A stretch of 64,000 nucleotides of DNA, taken from Candidatus Berkelbacteria bacterium. Lineage in GTDB: Bacteria; Patescibacteriota; UBA1384; DTJR01. The DNA lies in NCBI GenBank assembly GCA_026397175.1, contig JAPLVK010000013.1, positions 8,232 through 72,231 of the forward strand. Direction: 5' to 3'. Made by a program: the position numbers and the translations under genes. Positions 6,121 to 59,625 of this stretch are shown piece by piece. The notes beneath the pieces are model-generated. The model worked only from the letters and a program-made list of their open reading frames with translations, was not told where the DNA came from and ran no database searches. The stretch's first letter is position 1. Every line of letters starts with the position of its first letter.

Positions 6121-6195
6121 TGGTGGTCGCTACTGGATTTGAACCAGTGACATTACGGATGTGAACCGTACGCTCTACCGCTGAGCTAAGCGACC
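6121..6195 (-). tRNA. tRNA-Val (anticodon CAC), CCA encoded
   Basis: reverse complement GGTCGCTTAGCTCAGCGGTAGAGCG...TTCACAT loop...GGTTCAAATCC...AGCGACCACCA folds as a cloverleaf. Confidence 0.85.
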
Positions 6196-12590: not shown

Positions 12591-12951
12591 GCCTAACTAT
12601 TTGAAGTAGCCACCCCCAACGGGGAGGAAAGTCCGGGCGCCGCAGAGTAGAGTACCCATGATAAATGGGCTGCCGTGAGGCAAGGGAATAGTACAACAGA
12701 AAATATACCGCTTGAGCCCTTCGGGGCGAAATCCTGAACGCAGTCGAAGGATTGTTTTCAGGTCGAGCAAGGTTGAAATCGTGCGGTAAGAGCGCACGCT
12801 TTCGGCGGGAAACCGCCGTCTGTGAAAACCCTATTTGGCGCAAGTTGAGTGGACCAATATCATCAATAATGATTACTCGTCAGATGACCGCGGTCTCAAC
12901 GCATAGATAGATGGCTACATAAACAGAACCCGGCTTATCGGATAGTTAGGC
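12591..12951 (+). ncRNA. rnpB: RNase P RNA, bacterial type A
   Basis: GGAGGAAAGTCCGGGC (P4 5' strand), ACAGAAAATATACCGC, GTGCGGTAAGAGCGCAC, ACAGAACCCGGCTTATCGG (P4 3' strand); P1 pairing gcctaactat/atagttaggc. Confidence 0.85.
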
Positions 12952-12962
12952 AAAATTAGTTC

Positions 12963-15056: not shown

Positions 15057-15085
15057 TTGACAAAAGCGTTAAAAATGAATACAAT
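15057..15085 (+). promoter_or_regulatory. consensus sigma70 promoter (TTGACA, 17 nt spacer, TACAAT) for the fic-hsd operon
   Basis: -35 at 15057-15062, -10 at 15080-15085. Confidence 0.55.
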
Positions 15086-15128: not shown

Positions 15129-16016
15129 ATGGCAAAAACACTTAATGTTTTCAACAAAATAAGCTCACTTCGCAAAAGATATTATAAAGCGTCCACCGGT
15201 AAAGACGCGCTGGTTAAGCTTATCACTGAAGCCGAAGTGGCCGAGCAGGTCTATAACTCAAATGCGATCGAAAATAGCACTCTAACACTTGAAGAAACCG
15301 AAAAAATACTTATGCAGATCGATCTGGATAGATTTATCAATGAACGAGAAATATTTGAAGCAAAAAATCTGGCGCGAGTCGTATCGTACATCGGCAATAA
15401 GGCCAAAGAGCAAGAACTCAATCTCCCAATGATTTTGCTGCTTCATGAAATGTTGATTTCCAACATTCGCGACGATGTTGCAGGAAGGTTCAGAAAAGAT
15501 AACGAATTTGTTCGCGTTGGCAGTCATATTGCTCCTAACCCAAAAGAGGTGGTGGATCGTCTGTCAAAAATGCTGGCCGAATATAATGCCGCAAGTAACG
15601 AGAATATCATCAAGCGGATTGCAAAATTGCATCTTACTTTTGAATATACACATCCATTTGTCGACGGTAATGGTCGCATTGGCCGCGTTATTAATAATTA
15701 TTTATTGATTCGAGAAGGGTATGTGCCGATAAATATTAAATTTATTGATCGGAAAATGTATTACGAAGCTTTCAGAGAATTTGATTCTAAAGGCGAGACA
15801 GCGGTGATGGAAGAAATTGTCGGTAAAGCTTTGACGAATAGTTATCATAAAAGATTAGCGTATTTGGAAAACAAAAAGATTATTTCTCTTGTCGACCATG
15901 CGAAAAATAACAAAATTTCTCATTCCAATTTGATAAATAAGGCCAACCGTCAGACCATTGAGGCCTTTCTGGAAAAGAATATTTGGAAAATTGGCGTTAA
16001 AAATGATAAAGAATGA
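15129..16016 (+). CDS. fic: Fic-family AMPylator, class II (N-terminal inhibitory motif SNAIEN)
   Basis: HPFVDGNGRIGR Fic motif; [ST]xxxE[GN] inhibitory motif near the N-terminus. Confidence 0.85.
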   Translation: MAKTLNVFNKISSLRKRYYKASTGKDALVKLITEAEVAEQVYNSNAIENSTLTLEETEKILMQIDLDRFINEREIFEAKNLARVVSYIGNKAKEQELNLPMILLLHEMLISNIRDDVAGRFRKDNEFVRVGSHIAPNPKEVVDRLSKMLAEYNAASNENIIKRIAKLHLTFEYTHPFVDGNGRIGRVINNYLLIREGYVPINIKFIDRKMYYEAFREFDSKGETAVMEEIVGKALTNSYHKRLAYLENKKIISLVDHAKNNKISHSNLINKANRQTIEAFLEKNIWKIGVKNDKE

Positions 16017-16178
16017 AAACTTATAAACGAATCAAAAATAAGAGTGAAATATATTGACCCAAACTTAAATAAAAACCCCTTGCCTCCGATATCGAATCCG
16101 CCATCACATTTCAGGAAAAATTCTTCAAGCATAAATTAGTTACAAGACAATGTATGAACAATATTTAAGAAAAAATCA

Positions 16179-17039
16179 TTGCAAAAAATAGGTAATATGA
16201 AAAAGAAAATAATTATCACTCAAGGTTTACAAATATATACATTTCAACAGAACAAAAATGATTATATTTCGTTGACTGATATGGCGAAGTATAAGGATGC
16301 AGAAAGAACTGATTATATTATCCAAAACTGGATGAGAACAATGGATACGATTGAGTTTTTGGGTATTTGGGAGCAGATCAATAATCCTAATTTTAAACCC
16401 ATCGAATTCGATGGGTTTAAAGAAAAAGCTGGTTCTAACAGTTTCTCTCTCACTCCAAAGAGGTGGATCGAAGCGGTAAACGCCATTGGTATGATAAATA
16501 AAGCTGGTCGCTATGGGGGCGGTACTTTCGCCCATAAGGACATTGCATTTGAGTTTGCCACTTGGCTTTCGCCCGAATTCAAACTCTATTTGATTAAGGA
16601 ATTTCAGCGCCTTAAAATCGAGGAGAATGAACGTCTGACTTTAGGTTGGGATGTTAAGCGACAGCTCACCAAAATCAATTACCGCATTCATACCGATGCC
16701 ATTCAAAAAAATCTGATACCAAAAGAAATTTCTAAGACACAAACAAAAATTATTTATGCCTCGGAAGCAGATGTTTTAAATATGGCGTTGTTTGGTTTAA
16801 CTGCCAAGGATTGGAAAGCGAGTAATAAGAGCAAAGCAGGCAATATGCGCGATTATGCGGATGTTTGCCAGCTCGTCGTCTTGGCGAATTTGGAAGGATT
16901 AAATGCTGAATTTATCAGACAGAAATTAACACAACCAGAACGACTCTTAAAATTAAATGAAATTGCTATAATCCAGATGAGTTCTTTGCTGGGCAGCCCA
17001 GGTCTTCAGAAATTAAAGGACAAGAATGCCAATATTTAA
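16179..17039 (+). CDS. KilA-N domain protein (phage-associated)
   Basis: ISLTDMAK...GGGTFAHKDIAFEFATWLSPEFKLY resembles KilA-N. Confidence 0.6.
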   Translation: MQKIGNMKKKIIITQGLQIYTFQQNKNDYISLTDMAKYKDAERTDYIIQNWMRTMDTIEFLGIWEQINNPNFKPIEFDGFKEKAGSNSFSLTPKRWIEAVNAIGMINKAGRYGGGTFAHKDIAFEFATWLSPEFKLYLIKEFQRLKIEENERLTLGWDVKRQLTKINYRIHTDAIQKNLIPKEISKTQTKIIYASEADVLNMALFGLTAKDWKASNKSKAGNMRDYADVCQLVVLANLEGLNAEFIRQKLTQPERLLKLNEIAIIQMSSLLGSPGLQKLKDKNANI

Positions 17040-17060
17040 AATAAACGATTCATACCAGAA

Positions 17061-17243
17061 ATGAAAATTAAAGACACACCAAAAATTAAGAAAGAAATTA
17101 CCCGTCAATGCGCTATCTGCGGGAAGAATATTTTAGTTAAGGTTTTTGTCAATGAAAAGTATATCGGTGGAAATTATTTTTGTGATATCCCAACAGTCGG
17201 AGAATATTGGGAATGTGATAAATGCTACAATAACTGGAAATAA
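17061..17243 (+). CDS. small Cys-rich (zinc-ribbon-like) protein, translationally coupled to hsdM
   Basis: CAIC...C...C..C pattern; stop 3 nt before the hsdM ATG. Confidence 0.4.
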
Positions 17244-17245
17244 TT

Positions 17246-18763
17246 ATGGCAAAAAATACATCAGCAAATATAGGGTTTGAGGAAAAGCTTTGGGCGGCGG
17301 CAGATAAGATGCGCGGCAATATGGATCCAGCCGAATACAAGCATATTGTTTTAGGTCTTATTTTTTTGAAGTATATTTCGGACTCATTTGAATTGCTTCA
17401 CTCCAAAATTGAGAAAGAAGATGGGAGCGATGAAGCCGAGGACAAGGATTATTATACCGCCGAAAATACTTTCTGGGTGCCAAAAAAATCACGCTGGAAC
17501 TATATTCGTGATAATGCTCGCAAATCTGAAATTGGAAAAATCATTGACGACGCCATGTACGCGATCGAAAAAGAAAATCCTGACCTAAAGGGTGTTTTGC
17601 GCAAAGATTTTGCTCGACCGGCTCTCGACAAACAGCGGCTTGCGGGAGTTATTGATGTTATAAGCCAAGTTGACATGCAGGAAAATCAATCTCGCGATAT
17701 CATCGGCCGCATTTACGAGTATTTTCTTGGCAGATTTGCTGGTAGCGAAGGTAAGGGCGGGGGTGAATTTTATACTCCGCAATGTATAGTTAAACTGCTG
17801 GTAAATATGATTGAGCCATACAGCGGCCGTGTTTATGATCCGTGCTGTGGTAGCGGCGGCATGTTTGTTCAGGCAGAAATTTTCAACCAAAACAGCGAAG
17901 GCAGGAATGACGATTTAATCGTACTTGGTGAAGAGTCAAACCATACCACTTGGCAACTGTGCAAAATGAATCTCGCACTACATCATGTTGACAGTTCTAA
18001 AATAAAGTATGGAAATAGTTTTCACAGCGATCAACATCCAGACCTAAAAGCTGATTTTGTTCTGGCTAATCCGCCCTTCAACGATTCTGATTGGGATGGC
18101 CAGCTTTTGCGAAATGATGTTCGCTGGAAATATGGTGTGCCGCCAACTAGCAATGCAAACTATGCTTGGATGCAACATTTCATCCACCATTTATCGCCAA
18201 CCGGAATAGCCGGTTTCGTTATGGCGAACGGTGCAATGGCGGCGAACCAGTCCGGTGAGGGCGAAATCAGAAAGAATTTAATCAAGGCCGGCCTAGTTGA
18301 TTGTATGATAGCAATGCCAGACAAGCTTTTTTATAATGTACAAATTCCTTGCTCATTGTGGTTTCTGTCGCGCGATCGGTACGATCACAAATTCCGTAAC
18401 CGTCATGATGAAATTCTCTTTATCGATGCGCGAAAAATCGGCAAAATGGTTGACCGTCGACATCGCGAACTATCGGAAGAAGATATTAAAAAAATATCGG
18501 ATACATATCACAACTGGCGAAGTACAAGCGGTAAATATGAAGATATCAAAGGATTCTGCAAAGCCGCGAAAATAGAAGAGGTGGAGAAAAATGGTTTTGT
18601 CTTAACCCCCGGTCGCTATGTCGGCACCGAGCTCGTCGAGGAAGACGACGAAGTTTTTGAGGAAAAAATGAAGCGATTAACCACCGAACTTAACCAGCAG
18701 TTTGAGCAATCAAAAAGAATGGAAGAAAAAATTAGTGATATTTGGAATAAAATTGAATATTAA
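17246..18763 (+). CDS. hsdM: Type I restriction-modification methyltransferase subunit
   Basis: HsdM N-terminal domain; [10 protein letters not shown] (motif I); LANPPFN (motif IV). Confidence 0.95.
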
Positions 18764-19484
18764 CCAAGCAGAATTAAAACTCCTTAAACTTTTAAAAGAC
18801 ATTAATCATTTCTATGTAGACAAATGTCTTGATTCTGTTGAAACTTGCAAATTGTCGTGTTTGCACGACAAGGTACTATTTGTTCTTTTTCTTAAAAGCT
18901 ATCAAACTTCCACGGCTATGTCACAAATCAGTGAGTATGATGAAGAATTATTAATGCTTGCAAGAACAATATTTGAAAATTATATTAATGCGAAATATAT
19001 ATTGAAAAACGACTCTGAAAAAATGGCTAAGTTGTTTTTAAACTTTGGTAAGATGTCTTCAATTAACTTATTAATTAAAATGAGTCCAGCCAGTAGCTCA
19101 AAGAAATTACTTTTACGATTAAAAATGTTACAGTCAGAGAGGGTGGCAGAAACAAAGAGTTTTGAAATAACAAGTCAATATAATTGGTCTTGCAAAACGC
19201 TGAAGTATATGGCTGAGTCTGTCGGATGCCTCGACGAATATGACATTACCTATAATTTATGTAGTATGTCAATCCACTCATGCTCTGTTAATCTTAAAAG
19301 GTATATTTTGCCCGAGGTTGAAAAGAATGATCAACTTAAAATACTTTCAAAATTAATTTCGATTAATAATAACTTAATGATGTTAGAGTTAGTATCTGAG
19401 CATTTTAATCTTGGGTTAGAAAACGATATTAAAGATTTTGCTAATGTCAAAAAAAGTATTGTTGATACATTAAGCTTTAAATAA
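18702..19484 (+). CDS. unknown protein embedded between hsdM and hsdS (the start may be the ATG at about 18918)
   Basis: ORF in a different frame overlapping the hsdM 3' end; no recognisable motif. Confidence 0.45.
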
Positions 19485-19539
19485 TAGCATTAATAATAAA
19501 AAAAATCCAAGATACCAAGCTGGGGCTAATTAGAGAGGA

Positions 19540-20178
19540 TTGGATAACAATAAAATGAAAACAGCCATGGATTATATAGTCAATCATAAAGAATATTTTG
19601 TGATTATTGCCCAGCTAGCAATAGCTCCATTGGTTATTGGTGTTATTTCCGGTTATGTGGCAAACGCGCTGTCAGCAAAAATTGATAAGAAGAAGTGGGA
19701 ACACGCAGAAAATTATTTTAATAAACAAGTCGAAATTCTATTAATGAAAACGCTACTATCTTTAAGAATTTATTCTGGGCTCAAGCTCGATAACGAATTT
19801 GCGGAAGGGAAGAAGGTTTTAGATTTTATAAAAATAAATCTCATCGATAATATTGAAAATTATAAAAAGACAATAATGTTTCCGACCGCAAAAGCTGGTC
19901 AGATGTTCGCTAGCAATCTAGCAGGTTTGAAGCAAGAGTCAGAGTCTTTGCATAGACAATTGCTTAGTTTTCAAATTCCAAATGCTAAACTCCTTAAAAT
20001 AATTGAGGATCTAATACAAGAGATCGATTTAATCCTAATCCCTTTTCAAGTGTTCCCAGAAATTATTGATCCTCAATATGCTAGTGATAAAAATCTAGAA
20101 TTAGATAGAAGTAGTCTATTTGTTAATTATAAAAACCTAGCAATTATTAGCTATAAGTTTATAAATGATATTACATAA
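19540..20178 (+). CDS. unknown membrane-anchored protein (one N-terminal TM helix) embedded between hsdM and hsdS
   Basis: hydrophobic segment IIAQLAIAPLVIGVISGYVANAL; overlaps the hsdS start by 14 nt. Confidence 0.5.
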   Translation: MDNNKMKTAMDYIVNHKEYFVIIAQLAIAPLVIGVISGYVANALSAKIDKKKWEHAENYFNKQVEILLMKTLLSLRIYSGLKLDNEFAEGKKVLDFIKINLIDNIENYKKTIMFPTAKAGQMFASNLAGLKQESESLHRQLLSFQIPNAKLLKIIEDLIQEIDLILIPFQVFPEIIDPQYASDKNLELDRSSLFVNYKNLAIISYKFINDIT

Positions 20179-21358
20179 CGACACAAAATTTAAAGAAACT
20201 GAGCTGGGACTAATTCCGGAGGATTGGGAAATTGATATGCTCGGAAACCGAGCCGATGTTATCATGGGCCAATCTCCTGAATCAAAATATTACAACAAAA
20301 ACCAAGAGGGCCTGTACTTTATGCAAGGGGTAAGAACCTTTGGCGAAAAATATCCGATCTTTGACACTTGGACGACAAGCGCAACTAAAACCGCACCAGC
20401 AGAATCAGTTCTTATGAGCGTCAGAGCTCCGGTTGGTGATCTAAACATTACTCCAGTAGAAATGTGTCTTGGCCGAGGCCTTGCTGCCATAAATGCTAAA
20501 AATGGCAATAACGAATACATCTATCAGCTATTAGAAGCATATCGAGATAAAGTCCTTGGGCAAGAGACGGGAACAGTCTATGGTTCTATTTCTAGAGATG
20601 ACATTTTTAACCTAGAACTACCTTTTGCCCCAAAAGATGAACAGCAAAAAATTGCGGAGGTTTTGGGGACGTTGGATGAGAAGATTGAATTGAATCACAA
20701 AATGAATAAAACTCTGGAATCCCTCGCCCAGGCGATATTTAAAAAATGGTTTATCGAGAATGCTGATCCGGACTGGGAAACTAAGAAACTTAAAGACATT
20801 TGTGAAATTAAAAATGGCTTTGCATTTAAAAGTGGAGATTATTCAAAAGAAGGCATTTTTCTATTACGCACAAGCAATTTTAACTCTGAAGGATACGCGG
20901 TTAAAAATGACCCCATATTTTTACCGAATAATTTCTATCAAACATTCTCAAATTACCGTCTCAAAAGATTTGATATATTGCTTGTAATGGTTGGAGCGAG
21001 TGTTGGTAAGCGATCATTTGTATTTTCAAATATATTGCCAGCACTTCAGAATCAGAATATGTGGAATTTCCGTGCGTATGACCAAAAGAATCAGTTCTTC
21101 CTAAAATTTATGATTGATCAAATTGTCGAATCGAATATTGGATCGGCTTCTGGCAGTGCTCGAGATTTTTTTCGTAAGGATTATTTCAGAGAAATCGAAT
21201 TCAACTTACCCAACCAGAATCTTCTTGATAAATTTTATGAAAGATTATTACCCCAGTTCGAAATGATTGATAAAAATATAAAAGAAATCGACACTTTATC
21301 GCAAATCCGCGATTCCCTTTTGCCAAGATTAATGAGTGGAAAACTGAGGGTAACTTAA
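20165..21358 (+). CDS. hsdS: Type I R-M specificity subunit with two target-recognition domains
   Basis: conserved central and C-terminal HsdS repeats (LPFAPKDEQQKIAEVLGTLDEKIELN; LPRLMSGKL). Confidence 0.9.
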   Translation: MILHNDTKFKETELGLIPEDWEIDMLGNRADVIMGQSPESKYYNKNQEGLYFMQGVRTFGEKYPIFDTWTTSATKTAPAESVLMSVRAPVGDLNITPVEMCLGRGLAAINAKNGNNEYIYQLLEAYRDKVLGQETGTVYGSISRDDIFNLELPFAPKDEQQKIAEVLGTLDEKIELNHKMNKTLESLAQAIFKKWFIENADPDWETKKLKDICEIKNGFAFKSGDYSKEGIFLLRTSNFNSEGYAVKNDPIFLPNNFYQTFSNYRLKRFDILLVMVGASVGKRSFVFSNILPALQNQNMWNFRAYDQKNQFFLKFMIDQIVESNIGSASGSARDFFRKDYFREIEFNLPNQNLLDKFYERLLPQFEMIDKNIKEIDTLSQIRDSLLPRLMSGKLRVT

Positions 21359-21373
21359 TTAATAAGGAGAAGT

Positions 21374-22096
21374 ATGAGCAAAAAGAATGACTCATTTATT
21401 TCTAGACAAATCATAGAAGTCCGTTTTAAAAACAAAGTATTCAATTTTATTGATATCAGGGGAGAGTTTGCTGATTATGTTGTTAATAAATTGAAGTACG
21501 AAGAAATTGCAATTGCTGGAAATAGGGTTGACTTTACAACACTTGATAGAACTAAAAAAAGCTTTTTCAGCTGGGAAAACTTCGGGATTCAGCTTGACGG
21601 AGAAGGTAATTTCGACAACTTCAATAAGAGTATTAGTGAAAATATTGTAATGCTCAAAAATTATAAAAAAATTTCTCTTCCAGAAATAATTAGGATCGGT
21701 ACGCGGATTACTGGGTTGTATCACTTCCCAAATAAGTCAGTCGCCCAAATCAAGAAATCATTCGATGATGTATTCTTCTCTCATCAGGCACTATTTGAGG
21801 AGAAATCTGGAATATCAATTAAGGATAATGGGCTTTTTGCAATGGATATAGAAAAAGAAGGATTAAAGGCTCATGTTAGCGTCGGGATAATGACTAAAGA
21901 TGAATCGATCGCAAAAGTTTTTTCGGATAAACTCTATGATGCTTACAATTACGAATCAGGAATTTTTCATGATATCGACTTATATGACGAGGCTCCAACA
22001 GTTAAAAACTTTGATGACCTTCAGTCGAGAGTATCATCTCAAATTGAAAAACTGAGACAGTTACAATTAGATATTGTAAAAAAACTGGAGCAATAA
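21374..22096 (+). CDS. unknown protein (240 aa) embedded between hsdS and hsdR
   Basis: strong SD AAGGAG; no recognisable motif. Confidence 0.55.
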   Translation: MSKKNDSFISRQIIEVRFKNKVFNFIDIRGEFADYVVNKLKYEEIAIAGNRVDFTTLDRTKKSFFSWENFGIQLDGEGNFDNFNKSISENIVMLKNYKKISLPEIIRIGTRITGLYHFPNKSVAQIKKSFDDVFFSHQALFEEKSGISIKDNGLFAMDIEKEGLKAHVSVGIMTKDESIAKVFSDKLYDAYNYESGIFHDIDLYDEAPTVKNFDDLQSRVSSQIEKLRQLQLDIVKKLEQ

Positions 22097-22097
22097 G

Positions 22098-22619
22098 ATG
22101 GACGAGAACCAGGCAGATCACACCCAAGGCTCTGCTATACAACCGGACTTTATTTCTGTTAAAAATTCCGGGGAAGAGACAAGCCCAGGAACTGAGAAAA
22201 ATATTGATAAAGTTATTGAGGACAAGGGTCCCGGGGGTTTTGTAATTGGCTTAGTTGATTCATTTGAGAAAAAATTTCCTACTGCCTTCTTTATTCTCGT
22301 GGTTGTAGGATATATTATTATCGAATCATTTGGTTCTCATAATATAAGAATTTACCAATACTCGGCAGTAATCTTGGTGAGCTTGATATTCTATTGTTTT
22401 TTAAAGTATTCGAGCGAAATTTTTGGTTGGTTTAGGCGGATTGGGTTAGAAGCAAAAAATAATCAAATAGCTACATATCTGGTCTCGTTTCTTGTTGTTG
22501 CGGTATTATGTATAGTATATTACTATTTCGGAACTCCGAAGTTATACTTTGAAAAGCGTCATAAGATTATCAATTCCGCTTGTGTGCAAACACAGCAATT
22601 TATTAAGGGGACTGAATGA
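22098..22619 (+). CDS. unknown small membrane protein (3-4 TM helices) embedded between hsdS and hsdR
   Basis: starts 2 nt after the previous stop; ATGA overlap with hsdR. Confidence 0.5.
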
Positions 22620-25600
22620 AATATACAGAATCAACATTAGAAGAAGCGACGAAGGAATGGTTTGAGGAATTGGGATACCAAACTATTTATGGGCCGGAGA
22701 TTGAGTCGGAAGCCGAAAAAGCCGAGCGGAAGGACTTTTCGCAAGTGGTTTTGGAAGGACGGCTAAAAAGTGCAATTGAAAAGCTAAATCCAAACATTCC
22801 AGCGGATGCAGTCGAAGAAGCATTTAAGAAAGTGGTTAATGTTACAAATGCTACTTCGCTTTTGATTTCGAACAATCAGCTTTTTCATAAATATTTGGTA
22901 AATGGAATTGATGTTGAGTATCGCCGAGACGATGGCACGATTGCTGGGGATAAAGTCTGGCTTATAGATAAAGAGAATATTGATAATAATGATTGGGTTT
23001 GGCTGGATCAGTTTACGGTAAAAGAGAACGAGATCCTGAAACAAGTTCAGGATGACACAAGGGTCAGGCGGCCGGATGTGGTGATATTTGTGAACGGTTT
23101 GCCACTCGCTGTTTTTGAACTCAAGAATTTGGCTGATGAAAATGTGGGGATCAAAGAAGCGTTCAATCAGTTTCAAACTTATAAAAACGATATTCCCTCG
23201 CTTTTTGCATATAGCGAACTTCTGGTAATTTCCGACGGGGCGGAAGCCAAAGTCGGCTCCATAACCTCGGATAATGATCGGTTTATGCGCTGGCGAAGTG
23301 TTGACGGCGCAGAATTAGCAAGCGATGCCGTGCCACAATTAGAAACTTTAATTAAAGGAGTGTTTGATAAAAAGCGCTTTCTGGACATTGTTTGTAATTT
23401 TATTGTTTTTAATACATTTAAAACCCCACTTCGCCAAGGTTACGCGGGGCAGGCATCCGGCGTAGAAAATATTGCCAAGATAGTACCGGCTTATCACCAG
23501 TATTTTGCAACAAACAAAGCCCTAGAAAGCACTATTCAGGCAACTGCAGATGATGGCGATCAGCGCGCCGGTGTGGTTTGGCACACACAGGGAAGCGGAA
23601 AGAGTTTAACTATGGCATTCTATGCCGGCAAGCTGATCCAAGCTTTGAAAAATCCGACGGTTGTTGTTTTGACTGATAGGAACGATTTGGACGATCAGCT
23701 TTTTGATACTTTTAGCAAGTGTTCCGACCTATTAAAACAAACACCTGTTCAAGCCAAGAACCGACGACACCTACGAGAGCTTCTGAAAGTAGCCAGTGGC
23801 GGGGTGGTATTTACTACCATTCAAAAGTTTTTGGACAAGGGTTTTCTGGAGAAAATGTTGTTAACTGATCGAAGAAATGCTGTAGTGATTGCCGATGAAG
23901 CCCACCGCAGCCAATATGATTTTATTGATGGCTATGCCAGAAGCATGAGAGAATCATTACCAAATGCTTCGTTTATTGGCTTTACGGGTACACCGATCGA
24001 GTTGTCCGACAAAAACACAAAGGCGGTTTTTGGCGGTTATGTCGATGTCTATGATATTTCCCAAGCTGTGGCCGATAAAGCAACCGTGCCGATATTTTAT
24101 GAAGCCAGATTGGCAAAAATTAATTTACTGGAAAGTGAAAAACCAAAAATTGATGCTGATTTCAATGATATTACTGAGGGCGAAGAAGTCGAAATGGTTG
24201 AGAAGCTCAAGAATAAATGGGCGCGACTTGAGGCGATGGTCGGTAGCGAAAAACGAATTAAACAAATTGCGCAGGATATTGTCGAACATTTCGAAAACCG
24301 GCTAGATGTGATGGATGGCAAGGGGATGATAGTTTCGATGAGTCGAAGAATTGCTGTTGAACTTTATGATGAAATTATTAAGCTTAGGCCGGATTGGCAT
24401 AACGATTCTGATAAAAAAGGTTTTATTAAAGTAATTATGACCGGTTCGGCCAGTGATCCATTGCCTTATCAAAAACATATTCGCAATAAAGAGTCTTTGC
24501 GCGAGATGGCAGATCGGATGAAAGATCCGAGCGATGAGTTGAAATTGGTAATTGTTCGGGACATGTGGCTGACAGGTTTTGATGTGCCAAGCATGCACAC
24601 AATGTACATAGATAAGCCGATGAAGGGTCATGGACTGATGCAGGCGATTGCTAGAGTTAATCGAGTTTATAAAGAGAAGCCGGGCGGTTTGGTTGTTGAC
24701 TATTTAGGCATTGCTCCGCAACTCAAGGAGGCCTTGGCTGAATATTCCGAAAACGATCAGGAAAACACGGCAATAGATCAGGAGAAAGCCGTTTCTGTCA
24801 TGCTTGAGAAATTCGAAGTTTTGCGAGGAATATTTCACGAGTTTGATTACGAGAGATATTTTAAGATGAAGCGATCTGACAAGACGAAATTTTTCGGTGA
24901 TGCTATGGATTTTGTTTTATCAATAGAGCCGGATAATGAAGAATCTAAAAAACGGTTTAATAAGGCAGTGGTTGAGCTATCAAAAGCCTTTGCTCTGGCA
25001 GTGCCGCACGAAAAAGCATTAAAGATTAAGGATCATGTCGGGTTTTTCCAGGCGTTAAAAGCATATGTTCGAAAAATTTCGCCTGTTTCCGGGCCGACTG
25101 AAGAAGATTATGATTTAGCCATCAAGCAAATTGTTTCAGATTCGATCGCATCCGGCGAAATAATCGATGTATTTAAGGCGGCTGGACTCGGTAAGCCAAA
25201 TGTTGAAATTCTCTCCGATGAATTTTTGGAGGAAGTGCGAGGGCTGGGCAGAAAAAATGTTGCTTTGGAAATATTAAAGAAGCTGCTGAATGATGAGATC
25301 AGATCGATTATGCGCAAGAATATGGTAAAAGGAAAATCATTTGCCGAGATGTTGGAAGCGACTCTGATTAAATATCAAAACCGAACAATAGAAGCGGCAC
25401 AGGTGATTGCCGATCTAATTGAACTGGCTAAAGAATTGAGAGGCGAAGTTAAGCGAGGAAAAGAGACGGGGCTGTCTGACGATGAAATTGCGTTTTACGA
25501 TGCTTTGGCCGAAAATGAGAGCGCAAAACTTGAGATTGGTGATGAAACGCTAAAAAAGATCGCCAAAGAGCTGGTTGTGATGATGCGAGAGAACGCGACG

Positions 25601-25759
25601 ATTGATTGGACATTGCGCGACGCAATTAAAGCAAGAATGAGAATCTATATTAAGAAATTGTTGAAAAAGTACGATTATCCGCCAGACAAACAGGAAGGCG
25701 CAACTCAGCTGGTTTTGTTGCAAGCCGAAACGATTGGAAAAGATTGGGGAGAAAAGTAA
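22616..25759 (+). CDS. hsdR: Type I restriction enzyme R subunit
   Basis: Walker A GSGKS; DEAH box [10 protein letters not shown]; overall HsdR architecture. Confidence 0.95.
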
Positions 25760-26998: not shown

Positions 26999-29900
26999 AT
27001 GAAGACAAAAATTAGTTCGCAAGGAATCGAAAAAAATAGAATTAGTTTTTCAAAGGACCATGTCAAAGTTGAGCTACCGAATTTAATAGAAATCCAAAAA
27101 TCGTCTTATAATTGGCTTTTCAAGGAAGGCCTTCGGGAACTTCTAAATGAGATTAGTCCGGTAGATGATTTTACGGGCGAGGCAATGCGGCTTGAATTTG
27201 GTGAATATGCGCTAAGCGAACCAAAAGTTGACGAACTGACCGCAAGAAATAGAAATTTAACTTTTAAAGCACCCTTGATGTGCGAAGTTCTTTTGACGAA
27301 CAAAATAACTTCAAAGAAAAAGGTCTCGAAGGTTTTTCTCGGCGACTTTCCCGTTATGACAGACAGAGGAACCTTTATTATTAATGGTATCGAGAGGGTT
27401 GTTGTTTCGCAAATTGTAAGAAGCTACGGTGTAATTTTTATTTCCGAGGACTTGGCCGGTAAGAAGTATTTTGGCGCAAAGTTAATTCCGAGCAGAGGTG
27501 CCTGGCTTGAATTTGAAACATCAAACAAAGGTGTTATTTCGGTTAAGGTTGACAGAAAAAGAAAAATTCCGGTTACAACTTTCCTAAAGGCCTTGGGAAT
27601 GGAGTCAGACGCTCAAATTTTAAAGACATTTTCGGATGTTGACGATAATGCCGATACAAAATATATAGAGCAAACACTTCAAAAGGACTTAGCCAAGGAT
27701 CGCGACAGCGCGTTAATCGAGGTCTACAAAAGAATAAGACCTGGCGATTTGGCAACGGCCGAGGCCGCGAAGGTATTTTTGGACGCATTGTTTTTTAACC
27801 CAAAAAGATACGATTTGGGGCGCGTTGGAAGATATAAAATCAATCGTCGCCTAGGTGTTAATATTAAGGAAAATTCCGAGGGAAGGGTTTTGAGAATAGA
27901 TGATATTATTGCGATTATCAAAGAAATTATTCGCTCAAATAATGATCCTATGGCTGAGCCGGATGATATTGACCATTTAAAAAACAGAAGGGTTCGCGCA
28001 GTTGGAGAGCTCGTGCAATCACGATTAAGGGTTGGATTTTTGAGAATGGAGAGAATTATCAAAGACAGGATGAGCGTTGTGGAGACCGAGAACGCCACTC
28101 CGGCCCAGCTCGTCAACTCAAGACCGATTGTCGCTGTTTTGCAAGAATTTTTTGCATCATCGCAAATGTCGCAGTTTATGAACCAAACAAATCCGCTTGC
28201 GGAGCTTGAACATAAAAGAACTTTGTCGGCAACCGGACCCGGTGGATTGTCTCGCGAAAGAGCGGGCTTTGAGGTTCGGGATGTTCACCAATCGCATTAT
28301 GGTAGAATTTGCCCGATCGAAACACCGGAAGGACCCAATATCGGGCTGGTTGGGTATTTGGCATCATTTGGAAAAGTTAACGAATATGGGTTTATCGAAA
28401 CGCCGTACCTTGAAGTCGAAAAAGTAAACGGGAAACCAAGAGTTACTAAAAAGATTGTTTATTTAGACGCATCAGACGAGGAAAAAACAACAATCGCGCC
28501 GGCCTCGACCAAAAAAGACGATAAAGGTTTTATTTTGGGAAATAGGATTCCGGTGAGAAAATTTGGTTCACCTTCGATCGAATCCGTTAGCACAATTGAA
28601 TATATGGATGTTTCGCCCAAACAAATTGCGTCAATTACGGCGGCACTGATTCCTTTTATTGAACACGATGATGCTGTTAGGGCAAATATGGGATCAAATA
28701 TGCAGAGGCAGGCAGTTCCTGTTATTTGTCCTGATTTTCCAACTGTCGGTACCGGTATGGAAGAAGACGCCGCAAAATCATCCGGGCATGTGGTTCAATC
28801 CCCTGTTGACGGGGAAGTAGTAGAGGCCTCGGCTGATAGAATCGTTGTTCAAGATAAGAAAAAACAAAGATCAAATATCCAATTAAGCAAATTTACTCGT
28901 TCAAATCAAGGGACATGTATCAACCAAAAAATATTGGCAAACCAAGGAGATCAAGTTAAGCCGGGTGATGTCCTTGCCGATGGGCCGGCCACCGCTCAAG
29001 GTGGCTTAGCTCTTGGAAAAAATATCCTCGTTGCTTTTATGAGCTATAGGGGTGGAAATTACGAAGACGCAATTATTATCTCGGAGCGACTCGTAAAAAA
29101 AGATGTATTATCTTCAATCCACATCGAAAAATATTCCATAGAAGTCAGAGATACAAAGCTTGGGCCGGAAACAATCACCAGAGATATTCCAAATGTAGGT
29201 GAAGAAGCCCTATCAAATCTGGATGGCGAAGGAATTATACGCATCGGAGCGGAAGTCGAAGCCGGAAACATTTTGGTAGGTAAAATTTCACCAAAAGGAG
29301 AAACCGAGCTTTCAGTCGAAGAAAAACTCCTTAGGGCAATTTTTGGAGAAAAAGCAAAAGATGTTAAGGATTCTTCTTTGCGGTTGCCGCATGGCGAAAA
29401 AGGCAAGGTAATTGAAGTAAAACTTTTCTCAAAAGACGCAAACGATGAACTCCCGGAAGGTGTCAGCCAAATGGTTGAGGTCTCTGTCGCACAACTTAGA
29501 AAAATTTCAGTTGGCGACAAACTAGCCGGAAGACATGGTAACAAAGGTGTTATTTCTATGATCTTGCCGCAAGAAGACATGCCCTATATGGAAGATGGAA
29601 CACCGGTTGATATAATTCTTAATCCGCTTGGCGTTGTGTCCAGAATGAACCTTGGTCAGATTCTTGAAACACACCTGGGACTCGCGGCGGCAAAACTCGG
29701 GTTTCAAGTTGCTACGCCGGTTTTTGACGGAGTTCCAATTTCAAAGATCAAGGAATTATTAAAAGAAGCAAATTACGACGAAGATGGAAAGATGGTTTTG
29801 TATGATGGAAAAACCGGAGAGCCGTTTGGTTCGAGAATCACTGTCGGCTACATGTATATATTAAAACTTGCTCACCTTGTTGACGATAAAATGCACGCCA

Positions 29901-30430
29901 GATCTGTCGGGCCGTATTCGATGGTTACACAGCAGCCACTTGGTGGAAAAGCGCAATTTGGGGGGCAGCGATTCGGAGAGATGGAGGTCTGGGCGCTCGA
30001 GGCATATGGTGCCGCTCACATCTTGCAAGAAATGCTAACGATTAAATCAGATGATGTATTGGGAAGATCCAAGGCCTATGAATCAATTATCCGTGGCGAA
30101 AAAATCGAAAGGCCATCAGTTCCGGCGTCGTTTAATGTACTGGTAAGAGAGCTACAGGGTCTTGGTTTGTCGCCTGAAATGATCGGGGTCGAAATACCCG
30201 TAGATAATTTCGACGAAGATAAACCGAGGGAATATATTAGACCAAATGTCGGGAACAATGCTAATAAAATTGAAGAAGTAAAAGAAGAAGTAAAAGAAGA
30301 AATTAAGGAAGAAATTAAGGAAGAAATAATCCCCGTGGAAGAAAAAGAAGATAGGGAACTAACCGAGATATTTGCCGGACAAGAAGAAAATCCACCAAAA
30401 GTAGAAATTACGGAGGAGGAAAATGCCTAA
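26999..30430 (+). CDS. rpoB: RNA polymerase beta subunit with an acidic tandem-repeat C-terminal tail
   Basis: conserved beta-subunit regions throughout. Confidence 0.98.
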
Positions 30431-59549: not shown

Positions 59550-59625
59550 TGGTGGACCCGACAAGATTCGAACTTGCGACCTCTTCCATGCCATGGAAGC
59601 GCTCTACCAGCTAAGCTACGGGCCC
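59550..59625 (-). tRNA. tRNA-Ala (anticodon GGC), with G3:U70 and CCA encoded
   Basis: reverse complement GGGCCCGTAGCTTAGCTGGTAGAGCG CTTCC ATGGCAT GGAAG ...GGTCGCAAGTTCGAATCTTGTCGGGTCCACCA. Confidence 0.8.

Follow-up and report, generated by a model that had tools for sequence, protein, structure and literature searches.

Two candidate accessory genes, encoding a DUF5677 protein and a membrane-anchored protein, in the hsdM–hsdS slot of a type I restriction–modification operon from Candidatus Berkelbacteria

The window analysed here is a stretch of 64,000 nt from a Candidatus Berkelbacteria metagenome-assembled genome (MAG), and our subject is two neighbouring open reading frames, ORF1 and ORF2, that lie between hsdM and hsdS of a type I restriction–modification (R-M) operon. 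An earlier note on this DNA had placed two ORFs in that slot, which we confirm, both lying on the + strand, and had taken them for a soluble sensor or effector paired with a membrane-disrupting partner. Our analysis points elsewhere. ORF1 belongs to the family DUF5677, ORF2 belongs to a rare family of membrane proteins whose recurrent neighbours are R-M genes, and the two families do not co-occur. With modest confidence, we read ORF1 and ORF2 as two independent accessory genes embedded in a variable cargo slot of an intact type I operon and not as a conserved pair.

The operon forms part of an island of ten genes, all on the + strand and either overlapping or separated by minimal gaps, in the order Fic, KilA-N, Zn-ribbon, hsdM, ORF1, ORF2, hsdS, two further ORFs and hsdR. 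Pfam identifies hsdM, hsdS and hsdR as intact genes on one strand, as expected of a complete type I operon. The features of the slot and of the three subunit genes are as follows, in window coordinates.

17246–18763, + strand: hsdM, the type I methyltransferase subunit (Pfam N6_Mtase 1.8e-106, HsdM_N 1.9e-29), left border of the variable slot
18753–19484, + strand: ORF1, a soluble DUF5677 (PF18928) protein, probably 243 aa from TTG 18753
19485–19554: AT-rich spacer of 70 nt between ORF1 and ORF2, with a Shine–Dalgarno-like run, AGAGAGGA, at 19532–19539
19555–20178, + strand: ORF2, probably 207 aa, a member of a rare family of R-M-linked, membrane-anchored proteins with a predicted helical bundle
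19594–19677, + strand: single N-terminal transmembrane helix of ORF2, at about residues 14–41 of the 207-aa form
20165–20178, + strand: 14 nt shared by the 3' end of ORF2 and the start of hsdS, an overlap of the same length being present in the related operon L001
20165–21358, + strand: hsdS, the specificity subunit (Pfam Methylase_S 3.3e-27, two target-recognition stretches), right border of the slot
22616–25759, + strand: hsdR, the restriction subunit (Pfam HSDR_N, SWI2_SNF2 and T1RH-like_C), which completes the type I system

Two overlaps that had been described before hold at these positions: ORF1 runs over the 3' end of hsdM in another frame, and the last 14 nt of ORF2 cover the start of hsdS (20165 versus 20178).

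ORF1 had been said to contain no recognisable motif. A Pfam scan nevertheless recognises DUF5677 (PF18928; InterPro IPR043733) at E 1.4e-18 and 68 bits, where the cutoff is 27.1. The match extends over residues 56–204 of the longest, 260-aa reading and profile positions 1–161 of 166, and its score is comparable to those of eight annotated members, the best E-value among which is 1.7e-21. We took the invariant residues of the family from a nine-sequence alignment that includes ORF1; they form an R-x3-E pattern near the N terminus of the domain and a Y-x3-S-x3-H pattern near its C terminus, and ORF1 retains all five (R88, E92, Y184, S188 and H192 in 260-aa numbering). This pattern of R, E, Y, S and H suggests that ORF1 may be an enzyme. 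The Pfam score also disposes of the concern that ORF1 might be a spurious overlap without conservation, and establishes it as a real gene. ORF1 is a highly divergent member, 14–21% identical to eight plasmid-borne members of the family, and lacks a central insert of 30–50 residues that those members carry.

The start of ORF1 can be narrowed by comparison with these homologues. Its longest reading, 18702–19484, gives 260 aa from the first TTG, with GTG 18735 (249 aa) and TTG 18753 (243 aa) as alternatives, and the overlap with the hsdM 3' end (stop codon at 18763) accordingly ranges from 11 to 62 nt. In eight DUF5677 homologues, 63–76 residues precede the invariant Arg; the corresponding count in ORF1 is 70 from TTG 18753, 76 from GTG 18735, 87 from TTG 18702 and 15 from ATG 18918. 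Because the N-terminal lengths of the homologues fit the longer starts only, the short form from ATG 18918 (188 aa, and about 189 aa in the earlier note) is excluded; the Pfam domain itself begins 17 residues upstream of that codon. TTG 18753 or GTG 18735 is the most likely start on this alignment, and the 243-aa form, also called by two independent gene callers (NCBI and Logan), is our best estimate. By hydropathy the protein has no hydrophobic segment. Its seven Cys residues (2.9%) are a modest number, so that its earlier description as Cys-rich holds only in part.

Beyond DUF5677, searches with ORF1 returned little. A word-indexed search of 5.8 billion protein clusters found ORF1 itself alone, tblastn against plasmids and phages gave no match even at E 1–10, and there was no meaningful match in NCBIfam, PADLOC-DB v2.0.0 (E ≤ 1) or PHROGs. 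Sequence and profile searches of the PDB found no relative of ORF1 or DUF5677. We also considered a HEPN/AbiV nuclease and rejected it: none of the four His residues of ORF1 has an Arg 4–6 residues before it (R-x4-6-H), no HEPN family appears among its Pfam matches at E ≤ 1, and BLASTP against the HEPN_AbiV protein of locus L014 gives E 5.7. The N-terminal coding part of ORF1 contains a perfect 8-bp hairpin, TTGTCGTG-TTTG-CACGACAA, at window 18852–18871, which sits exactly over two internal TTG codons.

ORF2 is likewise a real gene, with full-length homologues (P0003, 52% identity; P0004, 48%) and a wider family. Its longest reading, 19540–20178, runs from the first TTG and yields the 212 aa reported earlier. 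That figure stands for the reading frame; the protein most likely begins at ATG 19555 and has 207 aa, because this codon aligns with Met1 of P0003 and P0004. The same start is given by an independent gene call on an identical contig, L004. The proposal that ORF2 is a single-pass membrane protein with one N-terminal helix is borne out by a single hydrophobic segment, with a hydropathy peak of 2.33 in a 19-residue window, and by a helix at residues 14–38 of the AlphaFold2 model. In 19 of 19 family members the 15 residues after the helix hold three to seven Lys or Arg, and those before it hold zero to two. By the positive-inside rule, this predicts a topology in which the N terminus lies outside and the C-terminal domain is cytoplasmic; the soluble part is modelled as a helical bundle.

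The 19 members are the proteins retrieved at E ≤ 1e-3 by an exhaustive profile search of 1.84 billion cluster representatives, and all 19 are about 200 aa long and match the profile over their full length. In their alignment G29, R71 and P168 are invariant, and an ADPWY motif is present in most. We define this grouping, which corresponds to no family described so far, as one of R-M-linked, membrane-anchored helical-bundle proteins. Its members share a length near 200 aa and a single membrane helix at the N terminus, followed at once by a positively charged stretch that contains a conserved Trp; further on they have an invariant Arg in [ST][IL]R and, within an FPE-like motif, an invariant Pro. 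ORF2 has each of these features. The 19-member family has no profile match in Pfam, NCBIfam, PHROGs, PADLOC or the PDB, and ORF2 itself has none in Pfam, NCBIfam, PADLOC-DB v2.0.0 (E ≤ 1), PHROGs or the PDB, nor a viral structural match in BFVD at E ≤ 0.001. Across the ORF1 and ORF2 families together, PADLOC produced merely scattered single-member noise. ORF2 was also considered as a HEPN protein and rejected, as its K/R-x6-H is not conserved across the 19 members. A search of the genome collection with three close ORF2 sequences found no further loci, and a search for the ADPWY subgroup found two genome loci and one metagenome locus, none of them in an R-M context.

The neighbourhoods of ORF2-family genes are listed below, with the family member named in brackets after each locus.

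Window: hsdM, DUF5677, ORF2, hsdS, the last two overlapping by 14 nt
L001 (P0003): hsdM, 192 aa, 205 aa, P0003, hsdS (same 14-nt overlap), 244 aa, hsdR
L013 (P0008, 20% identity): hsdM, NYN, NYN, AAA_14 ATPase, 527 aa, P0008, hsdS (1-nt gap), Fic, hsdR, YgjP
L017 (P0006): hsdM, AbiEi-like, AbiEii/WYL, P0006, 198 aa, hsdS, OLD-family, hsdR
L005 (P0004): Fic, 161 aa, P0004, hsdS 5' remnant (MEIGLIPEG-stop), N4/N6 methyltransferase
L018 (P0011, Parcubacteria): 1018-aa MmeI/Eco57I-type enzyme, P0011, with an 8-nt overlap at the 3' end of the enzyme gene
L010 (P0012): N6_N4_Mtase, 216 aa, ResIII, then at a distance P0012, then at a distance PhdYeFM
L014 (P0015): PNPase, KH-domain protein, P0015, HEPN_AbiV, Mrr_cat
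L032 (P0009): tRNA synthetase, P0009, EVE, the family gene overlapping both neighbours
L031 (P0027): integrase fragment, P0027, then at a distance HATPase_c_3
L015, L016 and L020 (Actinomycetota); L021 and L022 (Planctomycetota): housekeeping neighbours alone

In four deeply diverged type I operons a member thus lies between hsdM and hsdS, directly 5' of hsdS in three of them (the window, L001 and L013) and one gene away from it in L017. The other embedded genes differ among these operons, and identity between the ORF2-family proteins falls to about 20%. The most consistent neighbour is hsdS, to which 5 of the 12 informative contexts are tied if the remnant in L005 is counted; R-M or abortive-infection (Abi) genes lie within a few genes in 8 of the 12. 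All-against-all BLASTP of the neighbours recovers hsdM, hsdS, hsdR and Fic as the recurring genes. It also finds one more recurring pair, of 98 and 106 aa and 46% identical (L001 6254–6550 and L010 10683–11003); neither protein has a family match, and both adjoin R-M clusters that carry an ORF2-family gene. Beyond the Hsd subunits, Fic and this small pair, the comparison revealed no hidden conserved partner.

The operon in L001 is the closest relative of that in the window, with protein identities of 82% for hsdR, 76% for hsdM, 52% for ORF2 and 31% for hsdS, and it shows which parts of the slot are exchanged. In a blastn comparison the two share hsdM, a block made up of ORF2 and the 5' end of hsdS (19634–20229), the conserved parts of hsdS, and hsdR. 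The shared DNA ends exactly at the hsdM stop codon, and neither the ORF1 segment nor the insert between hsdS and hsdR is common to the two operons. L001 keeps ORF2 before hsdS and has two unrelated genes in place of ORF1. At L001 9233–9306, between the two genes that replace ORF1 there, lies a truncated second hsdS 5' end (MTTNQTQFKQTEIELIPEDWEVLE-stop), and the similar remnant in L005 follows the ORF2 homologue at about 1745–1775. Because such truncated copies border swapped genes, the hsdS 5' end looks like a recombination junction for cassette exchange. In these arrangements the hsdS 5' end and the ORF2-family gene beside it appear to move as a unit, and ORF1 probably occupies the swappable part of the hsdM–hsdS slot. 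Within the window, no repeats of note flank the ORF1–ORF2 cassette.

The relatives of ORF1 have a different history of company. We reached them through the Enterococcus faecalis plasmid NZ_CP076491.1, whose accession is given in the supplement of a preprint that tested its DUF5677 gene, and then by tblastn, collecting members from plasmids of Enterococcus, Lacticaseibacillus, Pediococcus, Macrococcoides, Bacillus and Klebsiella and from the phage phiFL1A. DUF5677 occurs there as single-gene cargo of Firmicutes plasmids, usually adjoining a serine recombinase, and in one temperate phage. The serine recombinase is directly adjacent in four plasmid loci (L023, L026, L027 and L030), and another recombinase lies about 4 kb away in L025. 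Toxin–antitoxin, Abi and R-M genes also adjoin plasmid-borne DUF5677 genes (in Enterococcus, Lacticaseibacillus, Pediococcus, Macrococcoides and Bacillus), and AbiEii, an Abi protein, an AlwI endonuclease and a SEFIR protein are encoded near them. On Lacticaseibacillus and Pediococcus plasmids (L024 4847–6846 and L025 4736–6846), the gene for a Schlafen/AlbA_2 protein overlaps DUF5677 by 28 nt, and a RelE/ParE–HTH pair and then a large methyltransferase gene follow; in these lineages DUF5677 may be part of a two-gene unit. The Enterococcus phage phiFL1A carries DUF5677 as gp37 (L033 3453–4175), flanked by the genes for the ArpU late activator and for the small subunit of the terminase. Accessory genes are often found in the slot between late activator and terminase. 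The preprint reports an enrichment of DUF5677 among defence contigs marked by recombinases (P = 1.98e-92, n = 25), and in its experiments the cloned DUF5677 gene of NZ_CP076491.1 was not among the five genes that protected E. faecalis. In a Salmonella study, the accessory domains listed as varying together with DndE, EcoRII, Fic_N and HEPN_RES_NTD1 include DUF5677.

Whether ORF1 and ORF2 belong together can be judged from both sides. Of the ORF2-family loci, the DUF5677 hidden Markov model (HMM) matches the window and its duplicate L004 but none of the 12 others that are distinct, and the ORF2-family HMM matches in none of the eight DUF5677 plasmid loci (L023–L030). Lenient Pfam scans found no DUF5677 among the neighbours of ORF2-family genes. 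ORF1 and ORF2 do not form a conserved two-gene system by this measure. The idea of a two-gene abortive-infection cassette, with ORF1 as soluble sensor or effector and ORF2 as its membrane-disrupting partner, does draw on real features of the locus. The genes are adjacent on one strand, separated by the 70-nt spacer, and both are low in GC (29.7% for ORF1 and 31.8% for ORF2, against 42% in hsdM and hsdR). DUF5677 can be part of a two-gene unit, as the overlap with Schlafen/AlbA_2 in L024 and L025 illustrates, and embedded two-gene systems exist, TgvAB for example. We nonetheless find the cassette very improbable, given that the families keep apart in both sets of loci, that the closest related operon retains ORF2 and not ORF1, and that the relatives of ORF2 have entirely different neighbours.

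If the two genes are independent, as we favour, ORF1 would function by itself, as a candidate for an enzyme-like protein with an accessory or defence role, and ORF2 would work not with ORF1 but with the R-M machinery at the cytoplasmic face of the membrane. One possibility is that it tethers or regulates the HsdS/HsdM core there, at the site where foreign DNA enters; alternatively, it could be an effector that the HsdS/HsdM core holds in check, as EcoprrI does PrrC. A role with the methylase–specificity core is suggested because the family has kept its place between hsdM and hsdS even where identity is down to about 20% and the other embedded genes have turned over completely, and because it also abuts type IIG and type III-like systems. 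We put forward such functional coupling of ORF2 with the R-M machinery as a tentative possibility. In a more specific version, the family would be an accessory R-M subunit that combines a membrane anchor with a bundle binding the HsdS/HsdM (or type IIG/III) core, and that gates or positions restriction. This version would explain why the gene stays at the 5' end of hsdS across deep divergence, and we consider it unlikely. In the literature searched, we found nothing that places type I enzymes at the membrane. Taken singly, ORF1 and ORF2 could each plausibly have a role related to defence.

Two further explanations dispense with any tie between ORF2 and the enzyme. ORF2 could be an autonomous membrane-acting defence or superinfection-exclusion protein that has merely lodged in R-M loci. 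It is small and membrane-anchored, in the manner of known exclusion proteins, and some of its relatives have no R-M gene nearby (L015 and L021) or stand beside AbiV and Mrr (L014) or an integrase fragment (L031). This explanation strikes us as somewhat unlikely: linkage to the hsdM–hsdS interval is kept at identities as low as about 20%, with all other embedded genes exchanged, a 5' fragment of hsdS travels with the family gene in L005, most of the protein is predicted to lie in the cytoplasm, and BFVD offers no viral structural match at the threshold given above. It could also be that neither gene is defensive, ORF1 being maintenance or accessory cargo of mobile elements and ORF2 a hitch-hiking housekeeping membrane protein. 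The serine recombinases beside DUF5677 in four plasmid loci, the more distant recombinase in L025 and the lack of defence from the DUF5677 gene tested in the preprint all fit such a view, as do the ORF2 relatives that lie amid aspartokinase, YchF and pantoate genes in a Planctomycetota MAG or after a tRNA synthetase in L032. Against it stand the enrichment of DUF5677 in defence contigs, its phage slot between late activator and terminase, and the 8 of 12 ORF2-family contexts with R-M or Abi genes, which by rough judgement, not by computation, is far above chance; we regard it as quite unlikely.

Several observations weigh against our own reading and temper it. At least two distinct ORF2-family members (that of L015, L016 and L020, and that of L021 and L022) have housekeeping neighbours and no R-M gene in the vicinity, which makes an obligate partnership with R-M unlikely, and the contexts of L031 and L032 are ambiguous. 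The informative loci number only 12, several of them on short contigs. Tight overlaps may reflect mere gene density, as in L032, so that the 14-nt overlap of ORF2 with hsdS is weak evidence of functional coupling. Composition is of no help here, since ORF1 and ORF2 are both AT-rich and GC content cannot tell backbone from cargo. The single-sequence AlphaFold2 model of ORF1 is unusable (pLDDT 35.6), and the ORF2 model has medium confidence and a generic fold match. Finally, the Enterococcus DUF5677 gene of the preprint gave no protection against six phages.

The rest of the island offers further candidates for accessory functions. Upstream of hsdM lie three genes on the same strand.

15129–16016, same strand as hsdM: Fic protein (PADLOC PDC-S04 1.4e-33, SoFic 1.2e-26)
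16179–17039, same strand as hsdM: KilA-N protein, matching the PADLOC candidate PDC-S22 almost end to end (5e-130)
Within 15129–17243, directly upstream of hsdM and on the same strand: Zn-ribbon-like, Cys-rich ORF of 60 aa

A second variable slot, between hsdS and hsdR (window 21374–22619), holds a soluble ORF of 240 aa and a membrane ORF of 173 aa with about three hydrophobic segments. Neither has a family match, and in L001 this slot holds a different gene, whose 244-aa product has a membrane segment at its N terminus. Between the ten island genes, the spacer at 19485–19554 included, there is no terminator-like site. Promoter-like matches occur across the region at chance frequency, one of them (9/12) spanning 19462–19490, and a near-consensus promoter-like site, TTGACA-17-TACAAT, is found at 15057–15085, just 5' of the Fic gene. 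In the wider window there are a class A bacterial RNase P RNA (180 bits) at 12593–12953, three tRNAs (2613–2683, 6124–6195 and 59553–59625) and an ORF at 26999–30430 that, judged by its translation alone, reads as rpoB with its start at 26999. These housekeeping landmarks indicate that the R-M island lies in the chromosome, among core genes.

The locus has precedents among known systems. Payne et al. 2024 reported that embedding inside R-M operons ('guilt by embedding') predicts defence function, and theirs is the source of the PADLOC PDC models. ORF1 and ORF2 are likewise nested between the hsd genes of an intact operon. The Fic and KilA-N proteins upstream of hsdM match that PDC set, whereas ORF1 and ORF2 do not; they fall among the many rare embedded genes, left over with no function assigned, that are also described in that study. 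Since nesting in type I R-M operons is an established predictor of defence genes, the finding as a whole is expected and not surprising. Its mildly new element is the linkage of the ORF2 family to restriction genes, the remainder being an instance of a known phenomenon. The analysis does define a rare membrane-protein family that is absent from Pfam and PADLOC and that has R-M genes and Fic as recurrent neighbours. Should ORF2 turn out to tether restriction enzymes to the membrane or to regulate them, a class of systems that has been studied very thoroughly would gain a new component.

TgvAB of Vibrio cholerae is a two-gene system embedded in a type I R-M operon; ORF1 and ORF2 are not homologous to TgvAB or GmrSD and are not a co-occurring pair. 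PrrC is almost exclusively embedded in type I systems (Payne et al. 2024), and the ORF2 family resembles PrrC/EcoprrI in this embedding pattern alone, with its 5 hsdS-tied contexts of 12. ORF2 is a 207-aa membrane-anchored bundle without an ABC-type ATPase or anticodon-nuclease domain, and some of its relatives have no R-M neighbour. ORF2 was also considered as a PrrC-type R-M guard and lacks the domains of one: Pfam, NCBIfam and PADLOC give no ATPase or nuclease family match for either ORF1 or ORF2, and hence no sequence link to PrrC. With the membrane proteins of superinfection exclusion and Abi, ORF2 shares its size of about 200 aa, a single N-terminal helix and a neighbourhood of conflict genes. 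It differs from them in having no sequence similarity or significant structural similarity to viral proteins, in not being prophage-borne and in the predicted cytoplasmic location of its soluble domain. ORF1, finally, is like other DUF5677 proteins in its length, its N-terminal extension and its invariant R, E, Y, S and H, and differs from them in location, being embedded in a type I R-M operon in a member of the candidate phyla radiation and not on a Firmicutes plasmid beside a serine recombinase. Its presence there widens both the host range and the genomic contexts of this family.

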